Assembly (NCBI GenBank): GCA_964473565.1
Contig: CAYYPI010000005.1
Coordinates: 1 to 52,859 of the forward strand
Source: an uncultured Gammaproteobacteria bacterium
Lineage (GTDB): Bacteria; Patescibacteriota; Patescibacteriia; Patescibacteriales; UBA12465
DNA: 52,859 nt
Reading direction: 5' to 3'
Shown here: piece by piece, positions 27,509-52,680 of the stretch
Layout: every line of letters begins with the position of its first letter
Position numbering within the stretch: the first letter of the stretch is position 1
Translations under genes and position numbers: made by a program
Notes under the pieces: generated by a model
What the model saw: only the letters and a program-made list of their open reading frames with translations
Databases searched by the model: none
What the model was told of the DNA's origin: nothing

Positions 27509-28783
27509 TTAAAGTTCTTGTTCTATTTCTTCACCGCTTAACATATCCTTAACCTTGTATTTTCCTTCCTTATACTCCTTATCTCCTAAAATAATAACTT
27601 TATTAATATTTTTTTTATTGGCATACTCTAGGGCCTTACCAATCTTAATCACTTCCAAGCCTTCTTCAATATTATAATTTTCTTGTCTTAATTTTTTTGT
27701 TAATAAAGCTGTTTCTTTTTTTAAACTATCATCAAGTAGTGGTAAGTAATATTTATCCTCTTTTTTAATTTGATCCAGTAAATCCCAAGTTTCTAAAAAC
27801 AGCTTGGTTGTTTCATCTCCAGGAGCAAAACCAACAGCTGGAAAAGATTTTTGTCCAAAAATGTCAGCTAAGGAGTTATACCTTCCTCCACCAAACATAG
27901 CCCTGTTATTATCTTTATTTAAATCAAATATTTCAAAAACTAAACCATCATAATAATCCAAACCTCTAATCACAGCTGGGTTAAAAGCAATATAATCACT
28001 ATAGCCTAAATCAGATAGCTTTTGCATAACTATAGTGATATCACTTAAACCTTGACTACTCTTTAACTGAGGTAATTCTTTAAGAAGTTCTTTATCATCT
28101 TGAGAATTCATAAACTTAGAGATAATCTCAAAAGAATCTTTTTTAATATTTATATCTTTAAAAGCTTTTTCAATATCAGCACTTTTCATCTTATTCCATT
28201 TATCCATTAACCTAGTTACAGTGAGTTTATTAGTATCTTTAATATTGGCTAAATCTAAAACTGATTCAATTAAATCTCTACTATTAATATACAATTTAAA
28301 AGAATTCTTAGGCGCTTTAAAGGCTAACATAATATCTAAAGACATTTGCATAATCTCTCTATCTGCCTCTAAAGAATCACTTCCAAATATATCACAATTC
28401 AATTGCCAAAACTCCCTATTTCTTCCACGCTGTGGTTTCTCATTTCTAAGGAAGTTAGCTACAGAATATAGTTTAATTGGCTTTTGCTCCTGATTATATA
28501 TTTTAGAAACTAAACGGGTAACGCTAGGGGTCATCTCAGGTCTAATAGCTAATTCTCTGCCGGCTCTATCAGTTATAGTCATCAGCTCCTTATTACCAAC
28601 CTCCTCGCCTGATTTTGCTTTATATATCTGAGCGCTTTCTAAAATAGGTGTTAAATAAGGATCAAATCCATATGACTGACAAACCTTCTTCCAGGTATCA
28701 AAAATATATTGCCTGATAGCAAATTCTTCTGGCAACCAGTCACTGGTTCCCTTTATTGGATTGTTTGTTATTTCTTTATTCAT
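27509..28783 (-). CDS. hisS: Histidine--tRNA ligase
   Basis: RPEMT, RNEKPQRGRNREFWQ, RGLDYY, GGGRY. Confidence 0.96.
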   Translation of the reverse strand: MNKEITNNPIKGTSDWLPEEFAIRQYIFDTWKKVCQSYGFDPYLTPILESAQIYKAKSGEEVGNKELMTITDRAGRELAIRPEMTPSVTRLVSKIYNQEQKPIKLYSVANFLRNEKPQRGRNREFWQLNCDIFGSDSLEADREIMQMSLDIMLAFKAPKNSFKLYINSRDLIESVLDLANIKDTNKLTVTRLMDKWNKMKSADIEKAFKDINIKKDSFEIISKFMNSQDDKELLKELPQLKSSQGLSDITIVMQKLSDLGYSDYIAFNPAVIRGLDYYDGLVFEIFDLNKDNNRAMFGGGRYNSLADIFGQKSFPAVGFAPGDETTKLFLETWDLLDQIKKEDKYYLPLLDDSLKKETALLTKKLRQENYNIEEGLEVIKIGKALEYANKKNINKVIILGDKEYKEGKYKVKDMLSGEEIEQEL

Positions 28784-28911
28784 ATGTAATTAGTGTAGCG
28801 CAGTTGTATTTTTTTTTCAATAAAGGTGTTAATAATAATTTAATAATAAGTTTAGAATTTTTTAATAGCATTAATTATATATTAAGCTTAATTATAATTA
28901 ATTTTTTATTT

Positions 28912-29586
28912 ATGAAAATCTTAATAATTGATGATGACAAAGAAATCGTCAAATTCTTAAAACCTAGCTTAGAAGCTGAGTTTTATGTGGTAGATCAGGC
29001 TCATGATGGAGAAAAAGGTTCATTCATGGCCAGAACTAATCATTATGATTTAATTATTTTAGATTACATGATGCCTAAACAAAATGGATTAGAAACATTG
29101 AAGGAAATACGTAAGGATAAAGTACAAAGTTATATCATTGCTTTAACGGTAAAGTCTGAATTAAAAGATAAATCTAACTTATTTAAAGCCGGAGCTGATG
29201 ATTATTTAACTAAACCTTTTATTTTCGAAGAATTATTACTAAGAATTAAAGCAATATCTAAAAGACCGCCCTTAAAAAATATAAAGATTTTAGCTCTTGA
29301 TAATCTTAAATTAGAAGTGGATAGTCAAGAAGTCTATAGAGGCAAAAAGAAAATATACTTAACCAGAAAAGAGTTTTGTCTCTTAGAATATTTTTTAAAT
29401 AATATTAACAAGGTTTTATCTAGAGCTTTGATATTAGAAAATGTTTGGGATATCAATGCTGATCCATTTTCTAATACAATAGAATCGCATATATTAAATT
29501 TACGTAAAAAAATAGAAGCTCCTGGCAAAACTAAATTAATACACACTGTAGCTGGTAGAGGTTATAAGATGGCACTTAAACTATAG
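28912..29586 (+). CDS. OmpR/PhoB-family response regulator (orphan)
   Basis: MKILIIDDD (ATG 28912), LDYMMP, GADDYLTKPF, LTRKEF, LRKKI, IHTVAGRGY. Confidence 0.93.
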   Translation: MKILIIDDDKEIVKFLKPSLEAEFYVVDQAHDGEKGSFMARTNHYDLIILDYMMPKQNGLETLKEIRKDKVQSYIIALTVKSELKDKSNLFKAGADDYLTKPFIFEELLLRIKAISKRPPLKNIKILALDNLKLEVDSQEVYRGKKKIYLTRKEFCLLEYFLNNINKVLSRALILENVWDINADPFSNTIESHILNLRKKIEAPGKTKLIHTVAGRGYKMALKL

Positions 29587-41997: not shown

Positions 41998-42432
41998 CTA
42001 ATACCTTCTTTTTCGACCTTTACTGCGACCGCCTCCTCTGTTATTAAGTATTCTAAGCTCTGGCCAGAAACCAATAACATGAAGAAATAATCCAGTCGAA
42101 GCAAATACAACAAAGTGAATTATATATGGCCAAATCATGCAATAAATATTCTCATCAAATATTTTTTCAAAAACTAATAATAAAATGGTTTGAAACCCTA
42201 AAAAAGTTCCACTACCTACGAAAGAATTAAAACCAGGAGAGAAACCATTAGCAGAATTATAATGAGACGTTCCATTTCTCGTTGAAAACTCATAAACAAC
42301 CCAAATACCCAAAACCAACACCACTAATATCCACTTCCATGGCCACAAATAAAAAATTATCTGCCATATATAAGAAGATATCGAAGATGCAGTTGGTATA
42401 GCTAGTGCTTGGCAAATCTCTTTTATTAACAT
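41998..42432 (-). CDS. Hypothetical membrane protein with basic C-terminal tail
   Basis: About three hydrophobic segments; starts 3 nt after the upstream stop. Confidence 0.65.
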   Translation of the reverse strand: MLIKEICQALAIPTASSISSYIWQIIFYLWPWKWILVVLVLGIWVVYEFSTRNGTSHYNSANGFSPGFNSFVGSGTFLGFQTILLLVFEKIFDENIYCMIWPYIIHFVVFASTGLFLHVIGFWPELRILNNRGGGRSKGRKRRY

Positions 42433-42435
42433 TTT

Positions 42436-43239
42436 TTATAAATATATATCAATTAATTTTTCTCCATCCCATTTTGTAAAACACTTAACTATCTTTTCTT
42501 TTATAATTGGCAATTTGTTACTTACCTCTTTGAAAACCTGTTGTAAATCATCAATATCATATGTAGAGTCGTGTAGATAAAAAATAAGGATATCAGCCTT
42601 CTCTATTTGATTATCCTTGTCTTTAATTTTTCTAACAATCAGATTCTTAAGATGTTCTGCCGGAATCCAACCGACTAATACCTGTCCTATTAAGGCTGTT
42701 TTGTTTTTATTGTTTATATCTTGAACTACTTTAATTTTAATATTTTCTCCATCATAGTCACTAATACCTCTATTTTCTAATTCTTCAACTTCTTTAAAGG
42801 CTCCATCTATTTTATTAAAATTTTTTATCTCAAACTCAACCGCCTTCCCACTTGAAATATTTTCCAATCTACCCCATAAGGCACTATACTTTTTTTCAAA
42901 ATTTTTTAATAATATACTTTTTATTTCAATATTTTTATTATCACTATTTTTGCACAAAATTAAATCATTATTTTCCTCTTTAGAAAAAACAGCAAAGTCA
43001 CGATCAGATAAATCTTTATTAATTAAATATAAAGAATGTAATTCTGCATACAAAGAATACCACTCGTTTTCCGTGCTATTCTTCTGATACTTATTTAATC
43101 TAGATATAAATTTATTTCTATCATCATTGGTCCTGTGATATTGCCACAATCTATCAATTAAAATACTTAGTCCATGTTTATTGCAATATTCAGGAGCATT
43201 ATCTATGAAATTTTTCTTTAAATCTTCAAATTTTGTCAT
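42436..43239 (-). CDS. Hypothetical protein, possible PD-(D/E)XK nuclease fold
   Basis: AEL helix followed by NDLIL...NIEIKS (E...D...ExK pattern). Confidence 0.5.
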   Translation of the reverse strand: MTKFEDLKKNFIDNAPEYCNKHGLSILIDRLWQYHRTNDDRNKFISRLNKYQKNSTENEWYSLYAELHSLYLINKDLSDRDFAVFSKEENNDLILCKNSDNKNIEIKSILLKNFEKKYSALWGRLENISSGKAVEFEIKNFNKIDGAFKEVEELENRGISDYDGENIKIKVVQDINNKNKTALIGQVLVGWIPAEHLKNLIVRKIKDKDNQIEKADILIFYLHDSTYDIDDLQQVFKEVSNKLPIIKEKIVKCFTKWDGEKLIDIYL

Positions 43240-43856: not shown

Positions 43857-44414
43857 TTACTTCATTATTTTTAACTCTTTCCTAATATCTAAATAATCTG
43901 GTAACTTGCTTGAAACTAATTTCCAAAATTTATTTGAATGATTAAATTCTTTCAAATGACACAACTCATGAATAACAATATATTCCGCCATTTTATTCTG
44001 TAAATAAACTATTTTGTAATTAATATTTATATTACCTTTTTTCGAACAACTCCCCCATCTGGTCTTCTGATTCTTGATTTTTATATTGTTTATTCTAAAC
44101 TCATTATTTTTATTATATTTTTTAACAATATCCTCTACAATTTTATAAGCCTTATCTTTTTTCTTAAAAAAATCATCATCAGATAAATTATTGAATGCTT
44201 TATTTTTGTGATCATTAAAATAGCTTATTTTTTTAAGCAACCAATTTCCCTTTTCTTTTAAAAATTTTTCAACAATATTTTCATCAGCTGTGCTCGGTAA
44301 AGTCACAACAACGCTTGCATCGCAATACACAGCCACCCGAAGTCTTTTGGCTCGTTGGCTTTTTCTTATTTTATAATCAATTTTCTTATCATTAATTTTA
44401 ATCCTCCTGCTCAT
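43857..44414 (-). CDS. M48/SprT-like (YgjP, DUF45) metallopeptidase-family protein
   Basis: QKTRWGSCS, YIVIHELCHL.EFNHS..FW (HExxH); usual position after hsdR. Confidence 0.9.
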   Translation of the reverse strand: MSRRIKINDKKIDYKIRKSQRAKRLRVAVYCDASVVVTLPSTADENIVEKFLKEKGNWLLKKISYFNDHKNKAFNNLSDDDFFKKKDKAYKIVEDIVKKYNKNNEFRINNIKIKNQKTRWGSCSKKGNININYKIVYLQNKMAEYIVIHELCHLKEFNHSNKFWKLVSSKLPDYLDIRKELKIMK

Positions 44415-44415
44415 A

Positions 44416-47322
44416 TTAGAACTTTTTAATAATTACATCTACCAATCTGTTCAAATATTTATTAAAATCAGTGATTTTAATTTTATTCTTGTAATCAATT
44501 AGAATTATTACTTGCAAAACCTTTTTTATTTCTTTTATAAACTGCTCTCTCTTTGATGATTCCTGCCAATCCTTATCTAGAACATTTTCAAGTCTTTTAG
44601 TCATTTCTCTTATAAATTTAATAATCTCCTTTTGATTATCATTTTCAATATACTCACCAGAAACAACATATAAACCATACTCCTTTAAATTCATACCTAG
44701 CTCTTTTGCTTCCTCACTTTTTGATTTAATATCATTAAGTAGATTATAATATCTTTTAACCCTCTCGGCTAAATCAATTTGATTCTTTTCAAACTCGTTC
44801 CTGATGGTAGACAGCCTTTCACTAAACTTTTTAAAAACTGGGTTGTCATCAATATTGGCGCTTATTTCTTGTTTTAACATCTTCTCCAAGTTTAATGCTT
44901 TCTCCTCATCATCCATCTTATCTAGTCTTTCAAGCGTATACAAATCATTAACTTTAAGCTCTCTGAAATTCTTAGTTATACCCTCATAATCAATCTCATC
45001 TTGAATTATCTTTTTTACTTTTTCACCATATTCTGATAATAATGCCATATCATTATCAATTGCTCTAAATTCTTTCGCAAAAGCTAAATAAAAACTTGTG
45101 ATCCACTCAAACTTTCGTAAATACTTTTTTAAAAATGGATCGGGAGAAAGTATCTCAAATAATAATTTTAATTTACTATACTTGTTAGCGAAATATACTT
45201 GTTTGTCCTGATTATCAATAAAGATTTTCAAACATCTTCTCAGATTATCCATTGATGGATCCTCAATATTTATATTAACAAATACATCCATTACATCTTC
45301 TAAAATTCTCTTAAAATCTTTCTTCATTATATCCAAGTCAATCATTGCTGAATCAACAATGTTTTCATCAAAATTCAATGCATCATACAGATTTTTTGTA
45401 ATACCATAATAATCAATAATTTTCCCGCACCCCTTATTTGGATATACTCTATTGGTTCTAGCGATTGCTTGAAGCAAATTATGATCACGGAGTGGTTTAT
45501 CTAAATACATCACTTGCTCAATCGGAGCATCAAAGCCAGTCAAAAGCATATCACAAACCAATAAAAATTTTAATGGATGGTTTGTGTCCTTAAAATTCAC
45601 AATTATTTTTTCCCTTTCTTTTTTATTTGTATTATATTTTTTTAAATCATCTCCATCGCTGTTTCTATCTCCCGGAGAATATACAACAGCAGTCCATTCC
45701 TTTGGCACTAATCTATCGAAGTAGTCTTTATATTTTGCAGTCGCTTCTCTGTCGTAGCAAACTACTTGTGCTTTAAAGCCATTTGGCTCTACATACAACT
45801 TATAATGCTCGATGATATCTCTCGCTATTGCCTCCATTCTCTTTTCCAATTTCACAATGACCTCTTTCTTTCCATACTTCTTTGTTAATTCTTGTTTCTG
45901 TTTATCATCTAAATCTCTGGTCAATTCATCAAATTGCTGATCAAGCTTATCTTCATCAATAAAAAATTTGGAAAGACGTGCTTCGTAGGTCACTGGCAAG
46001 GTCGCACCATCGTCAATTGCCTCTTGTATGGAATAATAATCCAAATATCTCTCCCCTTCTTCTCCAAAATTTCTATGAGTATTCAAGGTTACCTTATCAA
46101 TAGGGGTACCAGTAAAGCCAAAGAAAAAAGCATTTTGCATTGTATCTCTCAAATTTATAGCAGACACCCCCTCATTATCTCGATGAGCTTCATCTGATAA
46201 AACAATAATGTTTTCATCCAAATTTTTTATATCATTACCTAATTCGGAAAACTTTTGTATTGTTGAAATAAATATGCCTCTTTCTGGAGATTTAATTTTC
46301 TTTTCTAAATCCTTTCTTGATTCAATTCTTGTCACATTCTGTCCTCCGCAATTTATAAAGGTATCGTAAATTTGGTCATCAAGATCAATTCTGTCTACTA
46401 AAATAAAAACTTTAGGATTTTTTAAACTTTCATCAAATCTCAATTTCCAGGCAGAAAAAAACATAGTTAAACTTTTACCACTTCCTTGTGTATGCCAAAT
46501 AAGACCTCTTTTTTTACTTCCATCCACAACTCTTTCAACTATTTTATTTGTAGCTCTTATTTGTTGATATCTAGCGATTTTTTTAATAGTTTTCCCTTTT
46601 TCTTTTTCAAATACAATAAAATTTTTAATGACATCAAGCAACCTATCTGGAGACAATAATGCAATTAATGTGTTCTCTAATTCTTCATCATCTTTTCTCT
46701 GGTCTTCCTCTTTCCAATGATTAAAGAATTGCTTTGGCGAATATGTTGAGCCGTAAACAGTATTTAAGCCATCGGTTGAAATATTAAAACAATTTGGCAA
46801 AAACATTTTTCTAGCAACTCTTTCGTATCTTTTGATTTGATCAATTCCGTTTTCATAATTAACAGTTAAGGATATGGTCGGACTTTTTGCTTCAATATCA
46901 ACAATAGGCAATCCGTTTAAAAATAACATTATATCGGGTCTAATGTTTTCTGTATCTCCTTCAAAGTAAAATTGATTAGTAACAACAAAATGGTTATTTT
47001 CAATATTTTTAAAATCAACGATAAAATAATCCTTTTTTTTCTTTTCATTGGATGCTCTCATGTTGACGCCATATCTCATCAAATTTAAAAAACCTTCATT
47101 GGTATCAATCTTCTTTATCTCCCTATAAACCGATTCGGCGACATCCTCGTCTACATCATTGATCTTTTTTACAGCCTTAATAATTAATGGCTTTATCAAA
47201 TATTCATTTTCGAAATCCCGAAAACCAGAAAAATCTTCAGGCTTAATATTTTCATAACCCAATTTTTCCTTTAAAAATTTGATTATGTAATTTTCAACTG
47301 TAGCTTGCTCGTTAAATTTCAT
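44416..47322 (-). CDS. hsdR: Type I restriction enzyme R subunit
   Basis: RPDIMLFLNGLPIVDIEAK, QIKRY, WHTQGSGKS, DEAHR, FTGTP, MLLTGFDAP, QAIARTNR. Confidence 0.96.
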   Translation of the reverse strand: MKFNEQATVENYIIKFLKEKLGYENIKPEDFSGFRDFENEYLIKPLIIKAVKKINDVDEDVAESVYREIKKIDTNEGFLNLMRYGVNMRASNEKKKKDYFIVDFKNIENNHFVVTNQFYFEGDTENIRPDIMLFLNGLPIVDIEAKSPTISLTVNYENGIDQIKRYERVARKMFLPNCFNISTDGLNTVYGSTYSPKQFFNHWKEEDQRKDDEELENTLIALLSPDRLLDVIKNFIVFEKEKGKTIKKIARYQQIRATNKIVERVVDGSKKRGLIWHTQGSGKSLTMFFSAWKLRFDESLKNPKVFILVDRIDLDDQIYDTFINCGGQNVTRIESRKDLEKKIKSPERGIFISTIQKFSELGNDIKNLDENIIVLSDEAHRDNEGVSAINLRDTMQNAFFFGFTGTPIDKVTLNTHRNFGEEGERYLDYYSIQEAIDDGATLPVTYEARLSKFFIDEDKLDQQFDELTRDLDDKQKQELTKKYGKKEVIVKLEKRMEAIARDIIEHYKLYVEPNGFKAQVVCYDREATAKYKDYFDRLVPKEWTAVVYSPGDRNSDGDDLKKYNTNKKEREKIIVNFKDTNHPLKFLLVCDMLLTGFDAPIEQVMYLDKPLRDHNLLQAIARTNRVYPNKGCGKIIDYYGITKNLYDALNFDENIVDSAMIDLDIMKKDFKRILEDVMDVFVNINIEDPSMDNLRRCLKIFIDNQDKQVYFANKYSKLKLLFEILSPDPFLKKYLRKFEWITSFYLAFAKEFRAIDNDMALLSEYGEKVKKIIQDEIDYEGITKNFRELKVNDLYTLERLDKMDDEEKALNLEKMLKQEISANIDDNPVFKKFSERLSTIRNEFEKNQIDLAERVKRYYNLLNDIKSKSEEAKELGMNLKEYGLYVVSGEYIENDNQKEIIKFIREMTKRLENVLDKDWQESSKREQFIKEIKKVLQVIILIDYKNKIKITDFNKYLNRLVDVIIKKF

Positions 47323-47323
47323 A

Positions 47324-48340
47324 TTATTTTTTATTGGTTATTTCAAAAATATTGTAAACAAATTTATTTCCGTTTAATGTCTCGGACTTTGAATAATTAG
47401 GGATCACATTTATTATTAAATTATTAAGACGCAAAGCCTCTTTAGTTGTAAACATTCCAATTCCATCACCAGCCTCATTTTTAGCATTTACCCCTGAATA
47501 CCCTTCTTCAAATATTTTCTCAATTTCGTCTTTTTCAATTCTAATACTCATCATTTCAATCTTAATTAAAAAATCTTTTGCTGACAATTTCTCAAAATTA
47601 ATAAAGATCTCTGAATTTGGCTTAGTATATTTAACAGCGTTCTCAAAAAAATTGTACATAGCCAAATTAAATATTTTATAATCTAAAACAACTTTATTTT
47701 TTTTGGCATAATCATCCTTAATTAAAAATTTAACCTCAACCTCTTTTTGTTTTAAATCTTCAAAAAAAGGCTGCGATATTCTCAATAAAACTTTCTTTAC
47801 ATTATGTTCAATAAAATTGTAATCACCACTTTCATCAAGTGATAGAACATTAAAACACTCTATATGTGCATTTACATCAAAAATTCTTTTATTTAAGTAG
47901 CATATAACTTCTGCGGTTAAATCTATGTCGTTTGATATTTCATCTTTTACCTTTTGCTTAAAAGTATCATATCCATAACTGTGCGTTGTAACATTTTCAC
48001 TGATCAAGCTTTCCATTTTTTGTTTCATCTGGCCTTGAATATTCTTGAGGGTATGAGAATGACTTTTTATTTTATTTGTATAATATTCAAAAAAGATAGG
48101 TGACATTAAACCCAAAGCATTCAATGTTTTATTAAATAGTTTCTTGCTTACATAAAGATCGTCGTCGTTAACTGATATCAATCTTGTGATTATGTTACCA
48201 TCTTTTTTGACTCCGCTCCGTATTCTCTTACCTGATAAAATAATTTTTCCATCACCGGGAATTTTATCAATATTTTCACAATCGGTTATATTGGAAGACA
48301 ATATTCTATTGAAATTGTTTTTAATTTCAAAATAAATCAT
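47324..48340 (-). CDS. Soluble histidine kinase with unknown N-terminal domain
   Basis: H-box-like HTLKNI, N box NFFENAVKY, F box IFEEGYS, G2 box GDGIGM; no TM segment. Confidence 0.8.
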   Translation of the reverse strand: MIYFEIKNNFNRILSSNITDCENIDKIPGDGKIILSGKRIRSGVKKDGNIITRLISVNDDDLYVSKKLFNKTLNALGLMSPIFFEYYTNKIKSHSHTLKNIQGQMKQKMESLISENVTTHSYGYDTFKQKVKDEISNDIDLTAEVICYLNKRIFDVNAHIECFNVLSLDESGDYNFIEHNVKKVLLRISQPFFEDLKQKEVEVKFLIKDDYAKKNKVVLDYKIFNLAMYNFFENAVKYTKPNSEIFINFEKLSAKDFLIKIEMMSIRIEKDEIEKIFEEGYSGVNAKNEAGDGIGMFTTKEALRLNNLIINVIPNYSKSETLNGNKFVYNIFEITNKK

Positions 48341-48801
48341 TTTAATTTACTTATCTCTTCTGTAATTATTTTAATAAATTCATATGTATCAGAATTTTTT
48401 GCTAAATAATTATCAGCTGACTTAATGTCGTCTTTTAAACTAAATCTATTGTGCCCAGAATACAAAATTACTCTTTTTGAATCTTTGTAGGTATTTTTTA
48501 AAGATTTAATAATTCCAATGCCCTCCTCATTTTCTGATAAAGTTTTCCCAACACCTTTAAAATCCACAAAAATTATTTGAGCTCTTTTAACAACCTCATC
48601 TTCGATATTTTTTAAATCTTTAATTTTATCAACAACCCAACCAGCTTTTTTTAAATTTGAAACGATGGCAAAATCTTCATCATCGACAAAAAGAATATGC
48701 ACATTGGATTTGTCGTGTTTTTTATTTTTTCTCCAAAACAACAATAAATCTTTCAAGTTAAAATTATTATTTTCAAATTTAAAAAGATTAATTTCACTCA
48801 T
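48337..48801 (-). CDS. Stand-alone response-regulator receiver (REC) protein
   Basis: ILFVDDE, IIFVD (phosphoacceptor), ILYSG, YLAK; ATGA overlap with the kinase. Confidence 0.82.
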   Translation of the reverse strand: MSEINLFKFENNNFNLKDLLLFWRKNKKHDKSNVHILFVDDEDFAIVSNLKKAGWVVDKIKDLKNIEDEVVKRAQIIFVDFKGVGKTLSENEEGIGIIKSLKNTYKDSKRVILYSGHNRFSLKDDIKSADNYLAKNSDTYEFIKIITEEISKLK

Positions 48802-48811
48802 ATTATTAATT

Positions 48812-49879
48812 TTATACTCTTATTCTACCACTCAAAAGGTCGTTCATAAGACCTTTTTTAAGTTGAATAAGTTTATTTTTAAATTGTTTATTAATTTCAA
48901 TTTTTTTATCAACTCCTGACAAAACTTTCACAAATTTTTTTTGTTCATCAAGAGGGGGTAGTAATATTTTTGCTTCCTTAACCCATTTAAAATGACGGTT
49001 ATACCCTGTGTTTGGAATATCTAAATTTAACAAAGAATAATATAAAAATTTTGGATCATTTTCTTTTTTACTTTGAAAAAGTTTTATGCCATCTGCTCCC
49101 ACAGCAAAAGGTTGATTAATAAATTTTACTACTCTTGTGTGATCTCCAAACAAAATAACTGGATAATTATTATTTACCAAATTATTATCATCAGTATAGC
49201 CACTTATATATTTTTGTCCTTGGTCAAAAATTGGATATTCACCTTTATTTTGATATTCTTTCTTTTTTAATCCTTTTATTTTTTTAAATGAACACAAGTC
49301 AATACAACTTATAAAACTAACTTTTGTTTTCAACTTTTTATTGAAAAATTCCCACATTAACCCCTTTTTAAGTTTTTCTATTTTTTTTATTATTTCTTCA
49401 GTTCTATCAATATCTACATCAACTTTAAATAAAATTTCAGCAATTTTGTCTTGTTCGTTTTTTTCTTTAGGAACCACGATATTCATTTCCTGATATTGAG
49501 ATATATAATATCGTTTATGATTGCCTACAGGAAAGTTTATTGATTTCATTTTCTCAAAAATAAATTTAAGGTTAATCTCTTTGTTTTTTTGCTTTAGTAT
49601 CTTTATTGCAGAAGATTTAATTTTAAAAGGAAAATCGACGAATTTACTATCTGTAGTAAAATCGTCAAAAATTATTACTGGTATATCTTTGTAAATCCCA
49701 AAATCTTCATTAGTATAACCTAAAATAAAAGACTTATTAGCAGTCAATACTGGAGTTTTATTGTTTTTATCATACGCAACGCTTTTAACGATATAATTAT
49801 CCGGCCTCTCATAATCCAATAAATCGCAAATTTTTTTCAGTTCCCATCCTTTTGGAATTGTTTTTTTTTCTTGATTCAT
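48812..49879 (-). CDS. hsdS: Type I restriction-modification specificity subunit
   Basis: IPKGW start, two TRDs, EQDKIAEIL and PPLDEQ helices, LKKGLM repeated twice. Confidence 0.92.
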   Translation of the reverse strand: MNQEKKTIPKGWELKKICDLLDYERPDNYIVKSVAYDKNNKTPVLTANKSFILGYTNEDFGIYKDIPVIIFDDFTTDSKFVDFPFKIKSSAIKILKQKNKEINLKFIFEKMKSINFPVGNHKRYYISQYQEMNIVVPKEKNEQDKIAEILFKVDVDIDRTEEIIKKIEKLKKGLMWEFFNKKLKTKVSFISCIDLCSFKKIKGLKKKEYQNKGEYPIFDQGQKYISGYTDDNNLVNNNYPVILFGDHTRVVKFINQPFAVGADGIKLFQSKKENDPKFLYYSLLNLDIPNTGYNRHFKWVKEAKILLPPLDEQKKFVKVLSGVDKKIEINKQFKNKLIQLKKGLMNDLLSGRIRV

Positions 49880-49881
49880 AT

Positions 49882-50336
49882 TTAACCTAAATGATTTTTG
49901 TTATACTCTGCTTCAGCTAAAGCATCAACATACTTAGCCCATTTTGCATTTCTCTTATGATGAAAATATTTTTTAAAGCCACTAAATCTGCCTTCCAGTT
50001 TCTTAACTTCATCATAAAGAGGCTTCATGTTTTCTGATTTTATGCCATAATCTCCATTCACTTGTTTTATTACCAGCTCACTATCCATCCAAACCTCAAT
50101 ATCATTTCTACAATATCCGGATGCTAAATCTAAGGCAAAAATTAATCCATTATACTCAGCTTGTGGTACTGTCAACTCACCAAGATATTTTGATTTTTCT
50201 AAAATAATATTTTCTTCCTCATCTAAAATTATCATACCACAAGCAGATTTTCCTTTCCTATTCTTCCCTTTAAGTGGGCGTTTTCTATTTTACAACAAGC
50301 ATCAGTTATTATTTTAACTTTTTTATATTTAGCCAT
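49882..50336 (-). CDS. RNase HI-family protein split by a -1 frameshift
   Basis: ATG 50336 gives MAKYKKVKIITDAC (first catalytic Asp); the -1 frame continues GKSACGMII...QAEYNGL...MDSELVIKQVNG.Y...VDALA. Confidence 0.75.
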
Positions 50337-50340
50337 TTTA

Positions 50341-52023
50341 TTAATATTTTAATTCTTTTAAATATTTTTTAACCTCTTTATCGATCAAATCCCTCTCCTT
50401 CTCCAACTTGGCAATATCTTTTAAAACTTCTTTTACATCAACAAGTTCTTCTTCATCGCTAGAATCAACATATCTTCGCACATTTAAATTATACTTGTTC
50501 TCTTTTAAAACCTTTAGCTCAACCACCTTTGCAAACTTATCTTGATCTTTATAAATATCATAGGTATTAACAATTTTCTCTATGTCCTTATTTCTGAGTT
50601 TATTTTGATTTTTACCTTCTTGGTATTCTTTCTCGGCATCAATAATTAATATTTTACCTTCTTTTTCTTTTGATTTATTCTTATTGAATATTAAAACAGC
50701 AGCAGGAATACCTGTTCCATAAAATAGTTTTGATGGCAAAGCAATCACAGCTTCTAAAATATCTTTTTCTATTATCTGCTTCCTAATTCTCCCTTCAATT
50801 CCACCTCTAAATAAAACTCCGTGAGGCACAACTACACCAGCCCTACCATTAGAATTTAAAGATTTAATTATATGAAGAATGAAAGCATAATCAGCATTTT
50901 TTGTTGGTGGCATTTCATAATCATCAAGTCGCCCGTATTTATTTGTTTTAAAGGCCTCATTCGCCCATTCTTTTATTGAATACGGAAAATTTGCAACCAC
51001 AATATCAAAGGTTTTTAGACTGCCGTCATTATTCAAAAATTGCGGATTCGATAAAGTGTCTCCTCGTCTTATATCAGCTCCATCAAGACCATGCAAAAAC
51101 ATGTTTATTTTTGCAATCGCATAAGTTCCAAGGTTCTGCTCTTGGCCATAAAGATATAGCGTGTTTGCAATTTTCTCCCCTCTCTTCTTTTTTAAATAAC
51201 TATATGCCTCCAGTAAGAATCCAGCGGAACCTACTGTTGGATCATAGACATGATCTTTTTCATGTGGTTTGAGAATATTAATGATTACCCTTTCAACTTC
51301 ACGAGGAGTGTAGAATTCTCCACCTTTCTTGCCTGCATCTGCCGCAAACTGCTCAATCAAATATTCATAGGCATCGCCAAGCAAATCGGAACTAATATAA
51401 TTACTGGCAAAGTTAAATTTTGAAAAATGATTTATTAAACTTTGTAAAGTTTCATTTGGAAATTTATCCTTGTTAGCAAAATCAAGATCATCAAATATTT
51501 TATCAAGCTTCGGGCTGTTGGCGTTTGTTAGTTTATCAAAAATTTCATTTAACTTCTGTCCAATATTCTCAGATGTTTCTTGAATCACCGACCAACGACA
51601 ATCTTTTGGAACTTGAAATCTGTGATTATGATCCATTCGAGCAATATCCCTATCTTTAAATTCATCCATAGCCTTATCGTATTCCTCATCCCAAACATCA
51701 CTAATTCTCTTGTAGAATAAAAGTCCGAATATATATTTTTTATAATCAGAACTATCAATTTTTCCACGTAAAATGTCAGCACTCCTCCAAAGGAATTGCT
51801 TTAATTGGGCAAGAGTCATTTTATCACTATCAAGCCCTTCCAATATTCCTTTATCATCGATTATTCTTTCAATGTCTTCTGGGCGATATTTTCTGTCTTT
51901 TCTCGGACCAACTCTTAGTGGGGTTATTTTCCCATCCTTTTCCCAATTCCTTAAAGTGTCCTGATTAACACTAAGCAAATCAGCGGCCTCACTTATATTT
52001 AATAATTTTTTTTCCTTTTTCAT
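50341..52023 (-). CDS. hsdM: Type I R-M methyltransferase subunit with N-terminal MerR/excisionase-like HTH
   Basis: LLNISEAADLLSVNQDTLRNWEKDGKI HTH; LWRSADILRG, GEFYTP, YDPTVGSAGFL, ANFPY, PHGVLFRG. Confidence 0.94.
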   Translation of the reverse strand: MKKEKKLLNISEAADLLSVNQDTLRNWEKDGKITPLRVGPRKDRKYRPEDIERIIDDKGILEGLDSDKMTLAQLKQFLWRSADILRGKIDSSDYKKYIFGLLFYKRISDVWDEEYDKAMDEFKDRDIARMDHNHRFQVPKDCRWSVIQETSENIGQKLNEIFDKLTNANSPKLDKIFDDLDFANKDKFPNETLQSLINHFSKFNFASNYISSDLLGDAYEYLIEQFAADAGKKGGEFYTPREVERVIINILKPHEKDHVYDPTVGSAGFLLEAYSYLKKKRGEKIANTLYLYGQEQNLGTYAIAKINMFLHGLDGADIRRGDTLSNPQFLNNDGSLKTFDIVVANFPYSIKEWANEAFKTNKYGRLDDYEMPPTKNADYAFILHIIKSLNSNGRAGVVVPHGVLFRGGIEGRIRKQIIEKDILEAVIALPSKLFYGTGIPAAVLIFNKNKSKEKEGKILIIDAEKEYQEGKNQNKLRNKDIEKIVNTYDIYKDQDKFAKVVELKVLKENKYNLNVRRYVDSSDEEELVDVKEVLKDIAKLEKERDLIDKEVKKYLKELKY

Positions 52024-52120: not shown

Positions 52121-52413
52121 TAAGATGTTATTTTAATTTTTATTTAATTTTTTTTACTTAAAATTAGCCAATTTTTGTGGTATTGTTATAGGACTGAATA
52201 TAAGCTATAATGTAAACAAATAAAAACAGACCATGACGGGGTCTGTAATTATTAGAGGGACTCTTTTTCTCTCTTTGGGAGATCCTTCCCTATTTATAGT
52301 TTGATATGTGTACAACTTAATTTTATCATAAATTTGGATTTAAAGAAATAAGGGATATAAAAAAAATATATAGATAGGATACTTGATGCTTGTCTATCTT
52401 ATTTTACGATTTC

Positions 52414-52680
52414 ATGTATAGAATGCTAATCTCTTACGATTTGATTTCCCCTAGAACAGATTATGAAGAACTTTATGACTACCTTCAATCTTTCAGGCAG
52501 TCAAAACATCCACTAGAATCTGTTTGGGTTGTTAGGACCAACAAGAAACAAGATGCTATAAGAGACGAACTCAAGGAAATAGTTGATGCCAATGATAAGA
52601 TATTGGTAGTTGATATAACTGGTTGCGCAGCAGCATGGCACAATATTCCATCTGAAGATTGGATAAAAATAGGACAATAG
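52414..52680 (+). CDS. Small Cas2/VapD-like ferredoxin-fold protein
   Basis: About 88 aa; LISYDL..., LESVW, D.ND.ILV pattern; probable ATG 52414. Confidence 0.6.
   Translation: MYRMLISYDLISPRTDYEELYDYLQSFRQSKHPLESVWVVRTNKKQDAIRDELKEIVDANDKILVVDITGCAAAWHNIPSEDWIKIGQ

Follow-up and report, generated by a model that had tools for sequence, protein, structure and literature searches.

Relays from histidine to aspartate (His-Asp) have been described in anti-phage defence, and they are the closest described counterparts of the locus treated here, a pair of overlapping genes at 47324-48801 on the minus strand of contig CAYYPI010000005.1 (GenBank assembly GCA_964473565.1); the whole stretch of 52,859 nucleotides (nt) that was analysed is called the window. 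Detocs is described as a validated His-Asp anti-phage system consisting of the kinase DtcA, the stand-alone receiver DtcB, which was proposed as a phosphate buffer, and the receiver-effector DtcC, some of its effectors being transmembrane (10.1101/2023.01.24.525353), and it sets a precedent for phage defence by a His-Asp relay. Ambrosia is described as a validated cluster of XRE, methyltransferase (MTase), HATPase kinase, REC-winged helix-turn-helix (wHTH) and HNH genes, in which defence needs the phospho-Asp and the action is transcriptional (10.1101/2025.09.30.679545). A figure legend of the DefensePredictor paper lists a further system that is predicted but unvalidated and has HATPase as well as REC domains, and the main text of Payne et al. 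(10.1101/2024.01.29.577857) describes PrrC as almost exclusively embedded in restriction-modification (RM) systems of type I.

The pair encodes a stand-alone receiver protein of 154 aa (REC; 48337-48801, minus strand) and a soluble histidine-kinase-like protein of 338 aa (HK; 47324-48340, minus strand), both recognised as open reading frames (ORFs) between the type I RM genes hsdS and hsdR, and both proteins match the PADLOC-DB defence candidate PDC-M43. REC was matched by the A profile PDLC04646 at 1.3e-35 and HK by the B profile PDLC04647 at 1.5e-50, and the gene order and adjacency in the window are those of PDC-M43. HK is matched from end to end, its residues 6-335 being aligned with positions 7-340 of a profile of 347, and three further M43B profiles match it, whereas the best M43A profile is covered by REC over its final two thirds only. 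This profile includes a transmembrane and linker part, and REC matches its positions 70-196 of 203 only; plasmid-borne members have a transmembrane helix and linker, and REC has neither. No other PADLOC system matched the pair except for a weak MTase_II match, and the canonical histidine kinase, its cognate response regulator and the single-domain receiver of the same genome gave no PDC-M43 match at 1e-5, these being three of its other two-component proteins. By these profile matches, the pair is an N-terminally truncated member of the catalogued candidate family PDC-M43. Our best reading, which is tentative and falls a little short of an even chance, takes the pair for a mobile signalling module that is complete in itself and is carried as independent cargo in RM operons, with the bare receiver as its output.

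As described, Detocs resembles the pair in having a His-Asp relay with an effector-less stand-alone receiver (DtcB), and it differs in its three genes, its large TPR kinase and the fusion of a receiver with a killing domain, whereas PDC-M43 has two genes and a kinase-like protein of 338 aa; neither an effector-bearing receiver nor a conserved third gene was found with the pair at the 15 loci compared below. The likeness to Ambrosia, as its description goes, is the integration of a kinase-receiver pair with RM-type genes in one cluster. However, the output of Ambrosia is a wHTH and its RM-type genes are a type II-like MTase and an HNH gene, whereas the window REC is output-less and has hsdS and hsdR as neighbours, and by architecture the window's type I system is complete without the pair, unlike Ambrosia as described. 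Set against the descriptions of Detocs, Ambrosia and the DefensePredictor system, PDC-M43 is distinguished by its two genes, the missing output domain and an altered nucleotide pocket. PrrC is likewise a module nested between hsd genes, and CBASS and PARIS fill such slots in two loci related to ours (L001 and L041, respectively); the protein families and chemistry of such cargo are unrelated to those of the pair.

PDC-M43 was predicted by "guilt-by-embedding" in a 2024 preprint (Payne et al., 10.1101/2024.01.29.577857), and the "M" of its name presumably stands for multi-gene. The terms histidine kinase, response regulator, two-component and receiver are absent from the main text of that preprint. 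PADLOC PDC candidates are called unpublished or unvalidated in passages of later papers, and a cold-seep validation study names eight other candidates as assayed, PDC-M43 not being among them. About 459 representative HK clusters were found at E values of 1e-30 or lower, almost all of 320-365 aa, together with 318 REC clusters at E values of 1e-5 or lower. Among 401 genomes sampled from the window's phylum, a tally that includes one unpublished genome (G154), full-length matches were found in 2, and the other 281 matching genomes had matches to the generic CA region only. No match at E values of 1e-25 or lower was obtained in 401 Pseudomonadota genomes, a search that scored at most five candidates per genome and had no positive control, and complete E. 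coli genomes searched with the DNA of a plasmid copy gave no match. Contigs of four DNA runs yielded only short pieces of relatives, with many spurious joints. The family is patchy in its distribution, though not tiny.

The receiver and the kinase-like protein

The AlphaFold2 (AF2) model of REC, built on 12 relatives, has a predicted local distance difference test score (pLDDT) of 78.3, with residues 1-25 below 50 and a (beta/alpha)5 core from residue 35. The top Foldseek matches were all receiver domains, with TM-scores by target of 0.7-0.79 (NtrX 4d6y, 0.77; ArlR, 0.79). Pfam Response_reg did not match REC, for which only a weak VpsR match at 0.01 was obtained, and a PDB profile search gave one response regulator at 0.004. 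All residues of the phosphorylation site, D40, D41, D80, S115 and K135, are present and invariant among the 12 relatives; in a wider set of 124 aligned receivers, D40 was found in 119 and D41 in 118 of 121, and D80, S/T115 and K135 in 124 of 124 each. The predicted phospho-acceptor Asp80, in the translated motif IFVDFKG, is encoded at 48562-48564 (minus strand). From the model, REC is predicted to have the classical receiver fold with acidic pair, phospho-Asp, Thr/Ser and Lys. By Pfam and AF2 it has no output domain and ends at residue 154 after the receiver, and fused longer receiver forms were absent among 7998 scored candidates, which is weak evidence.

REC begins with a Phe/Lys-rich extension of 33 aa (Phe 10%, Lys 14%, net charge about +3.4 near the junction). 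A transmembrane-like N-terminal segment was found in 24 of the 124 REC partners, including three plasmid copies, whose receivers of 201-215 aa have one clear N-terminal transmembrane helix followed by a low-complexity linker; one copy from candidate phyla (CPR) bacteria, L046, has the same helix and linker. Neither REC nor HK of the window has a transmembrane segment, the best 19-residue Kyte-Doolittle windows of the two proteins being 0.66 and 0.65. The window's subfamily thus carries a truncated receiver, and the copy of the window appears to have lost the transmembrane helix. By analogy with the transmembrane effectors of abortive-infection systems and of some Detocs operons, the anchored receivers hint at an action at the membrane.

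The AF2 model of HK (pLDDT 88.9) consists of a beta domain (residues 1-57), helices at 66-112 and 124-168 and a CA domain (176-336). HK853, HprS and WalK were the top matches in Foldseek, and the model also matches ZraS and MprB; E values in Foldseek went down to 6e-13, and Z scores in VIA-align were 18.9 for ZraS, 18.4 for DivL and 18.1 for HK853. Pfam matched HATPase_c only (5.8e-8) and HisKA did not match, while many sensor kinases of NCBIfam matched, all of them sub-threshold. The beta-rich, sensor-like N-terminal domain (aa 1-57; 48170-48340, minus strand) has AF2 strands at 2-8, 13-16, 31-35, 38-47 and 50-57, and its Atlas neighbours were N-terminal sensor parts of histidine kinases, with weak TM-scores of 0.58-0.68 over about 60 aa. 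A DHp-like helical hairpin (aa 66-168; 47837-48145, minus strand), which was aligned to the DHp of HK853, HprS and DivL, carries His96 in the H box KSHSHTLKN, with Thr97 as the next residue (His96 codon 48053-48055, minus strand), so that the model predicts a DHp hairpin with a conserved phospho-acceptor His. The CA (HATPase_c) domain (aa 176-336; 47333-47815, minus strand) has its F box intact, as well as the N box (N234/K237/Y238) and the G2 box (G291/G293/G295), and its G1 box at aa 263-267 reads M-M-S-I-R in place of DxGxG (translation IEMMSIR; 47540-47554, minus strand), M263, S265 and R267 standing opposite the D, G and G of G1 in HMMER alignments to SrrB and BceS.

Conservation was examined in 169 HK sequences comprising the window, 23 word-search matches and the 150 top-ranking matches of a profile search that was exhaustive. 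His96 is occupied by His in 167 of 167 aligned sequences (2 gaps); N234, K237 and Y238 are found in 169 of 169 each, and G291, G293 and G295 in 168, 169 and 167, respectively. At least four Cys are present in the N-terminal domain of 75 of these relatives, 40 of which have the pattern CxxC-x2-4-C-x5-12-C, and 80, including the window, have at most one. The Cys-rich form suggests a metal site, and the residues concerned have been lost from the window's subfamily. A first-pass annotation of the window had proposed an output-less receiver with the residues DD, D, S and K and an extension of about 30 aa, together with a soluble kinase lacking transmembrane segments and having intact H, N, F and G2 boxes and a degenerate G1 box, and each of these features was recovered here. 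Its N-terminal kinase domain of about 90 aa had to be shortened to about 57-65 aa, as residues 66-112 form the first DHp helix with His96. Its term "two-component pair" suits the DHp His and the receiver sites, but not the G1 Asp and the acid after His, which are missing across the family.

Genomic contexts of the pair and its relatives

To compare contexts, genome and metagenome collections were scanned with two peptide patterns made from 16 closer sequences, which gave 15 loci, and one further locus was taken from the phylum search; contexts were annotated with Pfam and PADLOC. L034 and L045 were left out as too short for context, L003 as a weak, non-family match, and L002, L040 and L005 as duplicates of L043, L039 and L046, respectively. 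The context set thus consists of 12 non-redundant CPR or metagenome loci, the window included, and three proteobacterial plasmids.

Type I operons were the context of the pair at 8 of the 12 loci, in three slots. The order hsdS-[pair]-hsdR was found in the window, L035, L036, L038 and L041, and at L001 hsdS lies upstream of the pair and the contig ends just after it; the order is hsdM-[pair]-hsdS at L037 and [pair]-hsdS-hsdR at L042. At L044 the pair lies between type III mod and res, and at L046 it directly follows the genes for a type IIG enzyme and a methyltransferase-like protein. It follows a fused PARIS AriAB at L043, where no RM gene was found in 11.7 kb, and it lies among RHS/YD-repeat genes at L039. 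In total, the pair was in or directly beside RM genes at 10 of the 12 loci and beside the fused AriAB at one more, and its link to defence loci is strong. The near-identical type I operons L001 and L041, both with the PDC-M43 pair, have different cargo ahead of hsdS: a CBASS 1TM effector and cyclase at 76-1900 of L001 (1.5e-52 and 2.4e-179) and a fused PARIS AriAB at 4895-6394 of L041 (4.5e-75).

Full-length PDC-M43 pairs were also found on three plasmids, of Shewanella, E. coli and Burkholderia, where they stand alone near toxin-antitoxin, NACHT, DUF3800, DUF262 and transposase genes. In the plasmid gene tables, which are incomplete, no annotated restriction enzyme lies within 9 kb on any of the three, and at L049 there is only, at a distance of about 6 kb, a short gene for an N-6 DNA methylase. 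The REC gene comes first and overlaps the HK gene at all 14 loci with a clear HK start, that of L043 being uncertain; the overlap is 4 nt at nine loci, 1 nt at two and 8 nt on the three plasmids. No conserved third gene was found beside the pair across the 12 loci and three plasmids. In a small, mostly unresolved tree, L037, with the hsdM-hsdS slot, is sister to L039, with the RHS context (support 89/92), and L001 and L041 are near-identical.

Because the slots vary, the RM types vary and RM-free copies exist, the pair appears to be a portable, self-working unit and not an HsdR-dependent part. An output needing HsdR cannot explain the type III, type IIG, PARIS, RHS and plasmid loci, and gating of HsdR is therefore not supported. 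The ATGA overlap and the hsdS-hsdR slot given in the first-pass annotation were read directly at the junctions, and homologues, which it had advised to check, are not mainly in non-defence contexts among the 12 CPR or metagenome loci. The role that it suggested for the signal holds up as far as the defence context is concerned (10 of 12 loci with RM genes and one with PARIS), and gating of HsdR by contact does not, in view of the slots, RM types and RM-free copies.

The host operon and other genes of the window

The pair belongs to a tight block of seven minus-strand genes, from hsdM through a gene for a YgjP-like metallopeptidase. The first gene, hsdM (50341-52023, minus strand; Pfam N6_Mtase 9.7e-112, HsdM_N and MerR_1 2.9e-9), encodes an N-terminal MerR-type helix-turn-helix (HTH; residues 7-56), which is also found on the HsdM of L038 and L041 and suggests self-regulation of these CPR type I operons. 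It is followed by an RNase H-like gene of 117 aa (49882-50235, minus strand) and by hsdS for the type I specificity subunit (48812-49879, minus strand; Pfam Methylase_S 7.7e-21, PADLOC Specificity_I 2.8e-63), which stops 10 nt before the ATG of REC. A single ATGA holds both the end of REC and the start of HK (4-nt overlap), and 1 nt separates the HK stop from the ATG of hsdR for the type I restriction subunit (44416-47322, minus strand; Pfam HSDR_N, SWI2_SNF2 and ResIII, PADLOC REase_I 8.7e-136). The YgjP-like metallopeptidase gene (43857-44414, minus strand; 2.3e-42) lies directly after hsdR, and such a gene also follows hsdR in L038 and L041. In a consensus scan of the minus strand, the best promoter-like site, a consensus match only, was at 52085-52058, upstream of hsdM, and no terminator-like site was found inside the block.

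The RNase H-like gene is a second embedded cargo of this operon. It was matched by Pfam RVT_3 at 7.8e-12, by a PHROG RNase H family at 1e-4 and by NCBIfam RNase HI models down to 4e-15, all of the last being far under the cut-off; its match begins at profile position 17, which leaves the first catalytic Asp in doubt. Two adjoining genes for proteins of 267 and 144 aa (41998-43239, minus strand) come immediately downstream of the RM block and could be another small defence-like pair: the 267-aa protein matched no family in any library scanned, and the 144-aa protein has hydrophobic stretches and a weak match to the PADLOC "2TM effector" (0.0085). Adjoining the upstream end of the operon, an ORF of 96 aa (52390-52680, plus strand) matches phrog_1090, a phage family of unknown function (4.2e-23), and has a weak Cas2 match under the cut-off (3.1e-4).

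The assembly that holds the window comprises 30 contigs of 0.97 Mb in total, with a completeness of 95.6%, and since the relatives of this genome (G000) are Paceibacterota and Saccharibacteria, it is that of a CPR bacterium. It has only one hsdS locus, and because this single locus hosts the REC-HK pair, the placement appears to be more than chance. Two kinase-like genes only were found in the whole genome, and its one canonical kinase-regulator pair is on contig 9; the canonical kinase (L050) is anchored in the membrane, and its sequence shows both H-D and D-F-G-E-G. A canonical single-domain receiver adjoins mreB on contig 13. In the window, an orphan OmpR-type regulator (28756-29586, plus strand; Response_reg 5.2e-28, Trans_reg_C 1.1e-23) is flanked by hisS and a gene for an MgsA-like ATPase and has no kinase gene beside it, and cross-talk between it and the pair is conceivable.

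Possible function and rival explanations

On the two protein models, the pair is a cassette in which a soluble sensor of histidine-kinase fold and a stand-alone receiver are coupled in their translation. We propose that the 57-aa N-terminal domain of HK would sense a cue from infection or failed restriction, that this would alter the phosphorylation state of Asp80 via His96, and that the receiver itself would be the output, acting at the membrane or by protein contact and leading to growth arrest or protection. These two sites of action are proposed because about one fifth of the relatives are membrane-anchored by an N-terminal helix; for the truncated receiver of the window, protein contact is predicted as the sole option left. 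The reading as independent cargo is put forward because CBASS and PARIS use the same slots in sister loci, and the pair is probably a passenger and not a dedicated switch on HsdR. A more daring form, which we consider quite improbable, would make PDC-M43 a minimal immune relay of two genes: the receiver would be the effector (anchored ancestrally and acting by contact in the truncated CPR form), the kinase pocket would be re-tooled by the changes of Asp to Met and Gly to Ser to use or sense a nucleotide other than ATP, and the CA domain would read the nucleotide state of the cell during infection instead of only fuelling the relay.

Several observations weigh against the module reading. The sample is biased, with 12 loci from one subfamily obtained via two peptide patterns and three from plasmids, and the RM association of 10 of the 12 loci would fit a functional link with RM as well. 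Neither REC nor HK has a visible effector domain, and the membrane anchor is absent from the window REC (best 19-residue Kyte-Doolittle window 0.65). An amphipathic membrane helix in the 33-aa extension was considered and is not supported, since the hydrophobic moment of the best 11-residue stretch reached 0.563, as compared with 0.535 in shuffles, and 53% of 100 sequences exceeded their shuffle mean. No homologues were found in phage records (query P0022) or viral contigs, so that counter-defence gives no hint, and a literature search for the name PDC-M43 found no paper and no experiment on the family. The kinase chemistry is a further such point. Among the 169 HK sequences, the G1 box is M-x-S-x-x across the family (M263 in 167, S265 in 169), and at the position after His 124 sequences have N, 31 have T and only 3 have D, so that the acid is missing across the family; HK of the window has neither the acid after His nor the DxGxG box of classical HisKA-type kinases. 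In GHKL ATPases the G1 Asp touches the adenine amino group, and in HisKA kinases the acid following the phospho-His aids autophosphorylation. Because both are missing throughout the family, ATP-driven autophosphorylation is not assured, and its classical form may not occur in PDC-M43 HK.

The same residues raise the possibility, which we regard as doubtful and as one that may coexist with a defence role, that HK is not driven by ATP and is a sensor-controlled phosphatase or phosphotransferase, or a user or sensor of another nucleotide in its re-tooled pocket, with the receiver charged by, for example, acetyl phosphate. Besides the replacement of the G1 Asp by Met and of the first G1 Gly by Ser, it is favoured by S, T or N at H+4 in 149 of the 169 relatives, the positions H+1 and H+4 having a bearing on kinase versus phosphatase activity, by the contrast with the canonical kinase of the same genome, and by DivL, a non-canonical kinase homologue, being among the best structural matches. 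However, the intact N and G2 boxes are the pattern of a working nucleotide site, and the true phosphotransferases Spo0B and ChpT have lost these boxes. A coupling to the RM enzyme itself, in which REC or HK would bind the restriction complex and license or brake the translocase-nuclease, or fire when anti-restriction blocks it, is in our view unlikely. PrrC is physically coupled to its own RM enzyme, and PrrC with EcoprrI is the model for a guard that fires on a blocked RM enzyme. Such a guard would fit the RM genes at 10 of the 12 loci, the distance of 1 nt between the HK stop and the hsdR start, the use of the genome's sole hsdS locus and the nesting of PrrC reported in the main text of Payne et al. 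(10.1101/2024.01.29.577857); HsdR, type III Res and the type IIG partner all have a ResIII-type superfamily 2 (SF2) motor, a possible shared target. The variety of slots (between hsdS and hsdR, between hsdM and hsdS, and upstream of hsdS) and of RM types speaks against it, as do L043 and L039 without a nearby RM gene and the three plasmids, whose incomplete tables list no restriction enzyme within 9 kb.

Very improbable, in our judgement, is an ordinary non-immune two-component system that is found in RM islands by chance or as an addiction-like passenger, perhaps cross-talking to the OmpR-type orphan 18 kb away. Single-domain receivers are common in ordinary signalling, this orphan has no adjoining kinase, and in Ambrosia, as described, a two-component pair regulates RM-like genes transcriptionally (10.1101/2025.09.30.679545). 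Against this stand at least five different defence contexts and the plasmids with defence or toxin-antitoxin genes beside the pair, the patchy occurrence (full-length in 2 of the 401 phylum genomes) and the absence of a DNA-binding domain.

If the PDC-M43 pair has no effect on phages, it would join the other database candidates that lack validation and would be of little interest. If it protects against them, as the reading as a self-contained module would have it, PDC-M43 would be the smallest known His-Asp defence system, made of two small proteins with no recognisable killing domain, and would raise, in a clean form, the question of how a phage is stopped by a bare receiver. The change of the G1 Asp to Met across the family, which is new here, is a rare natural experiment on the GHKL fold, in which the adenine-contacting Asp has been lost from an otherwise intact nucleotide site. 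For restriction biology, the loci show how the gaps of a single type I operon are filled, in CPR genomes of very small size, with several independent defence cargos, namely this pair, CBASS, PARIS and an RNase H-like gene.

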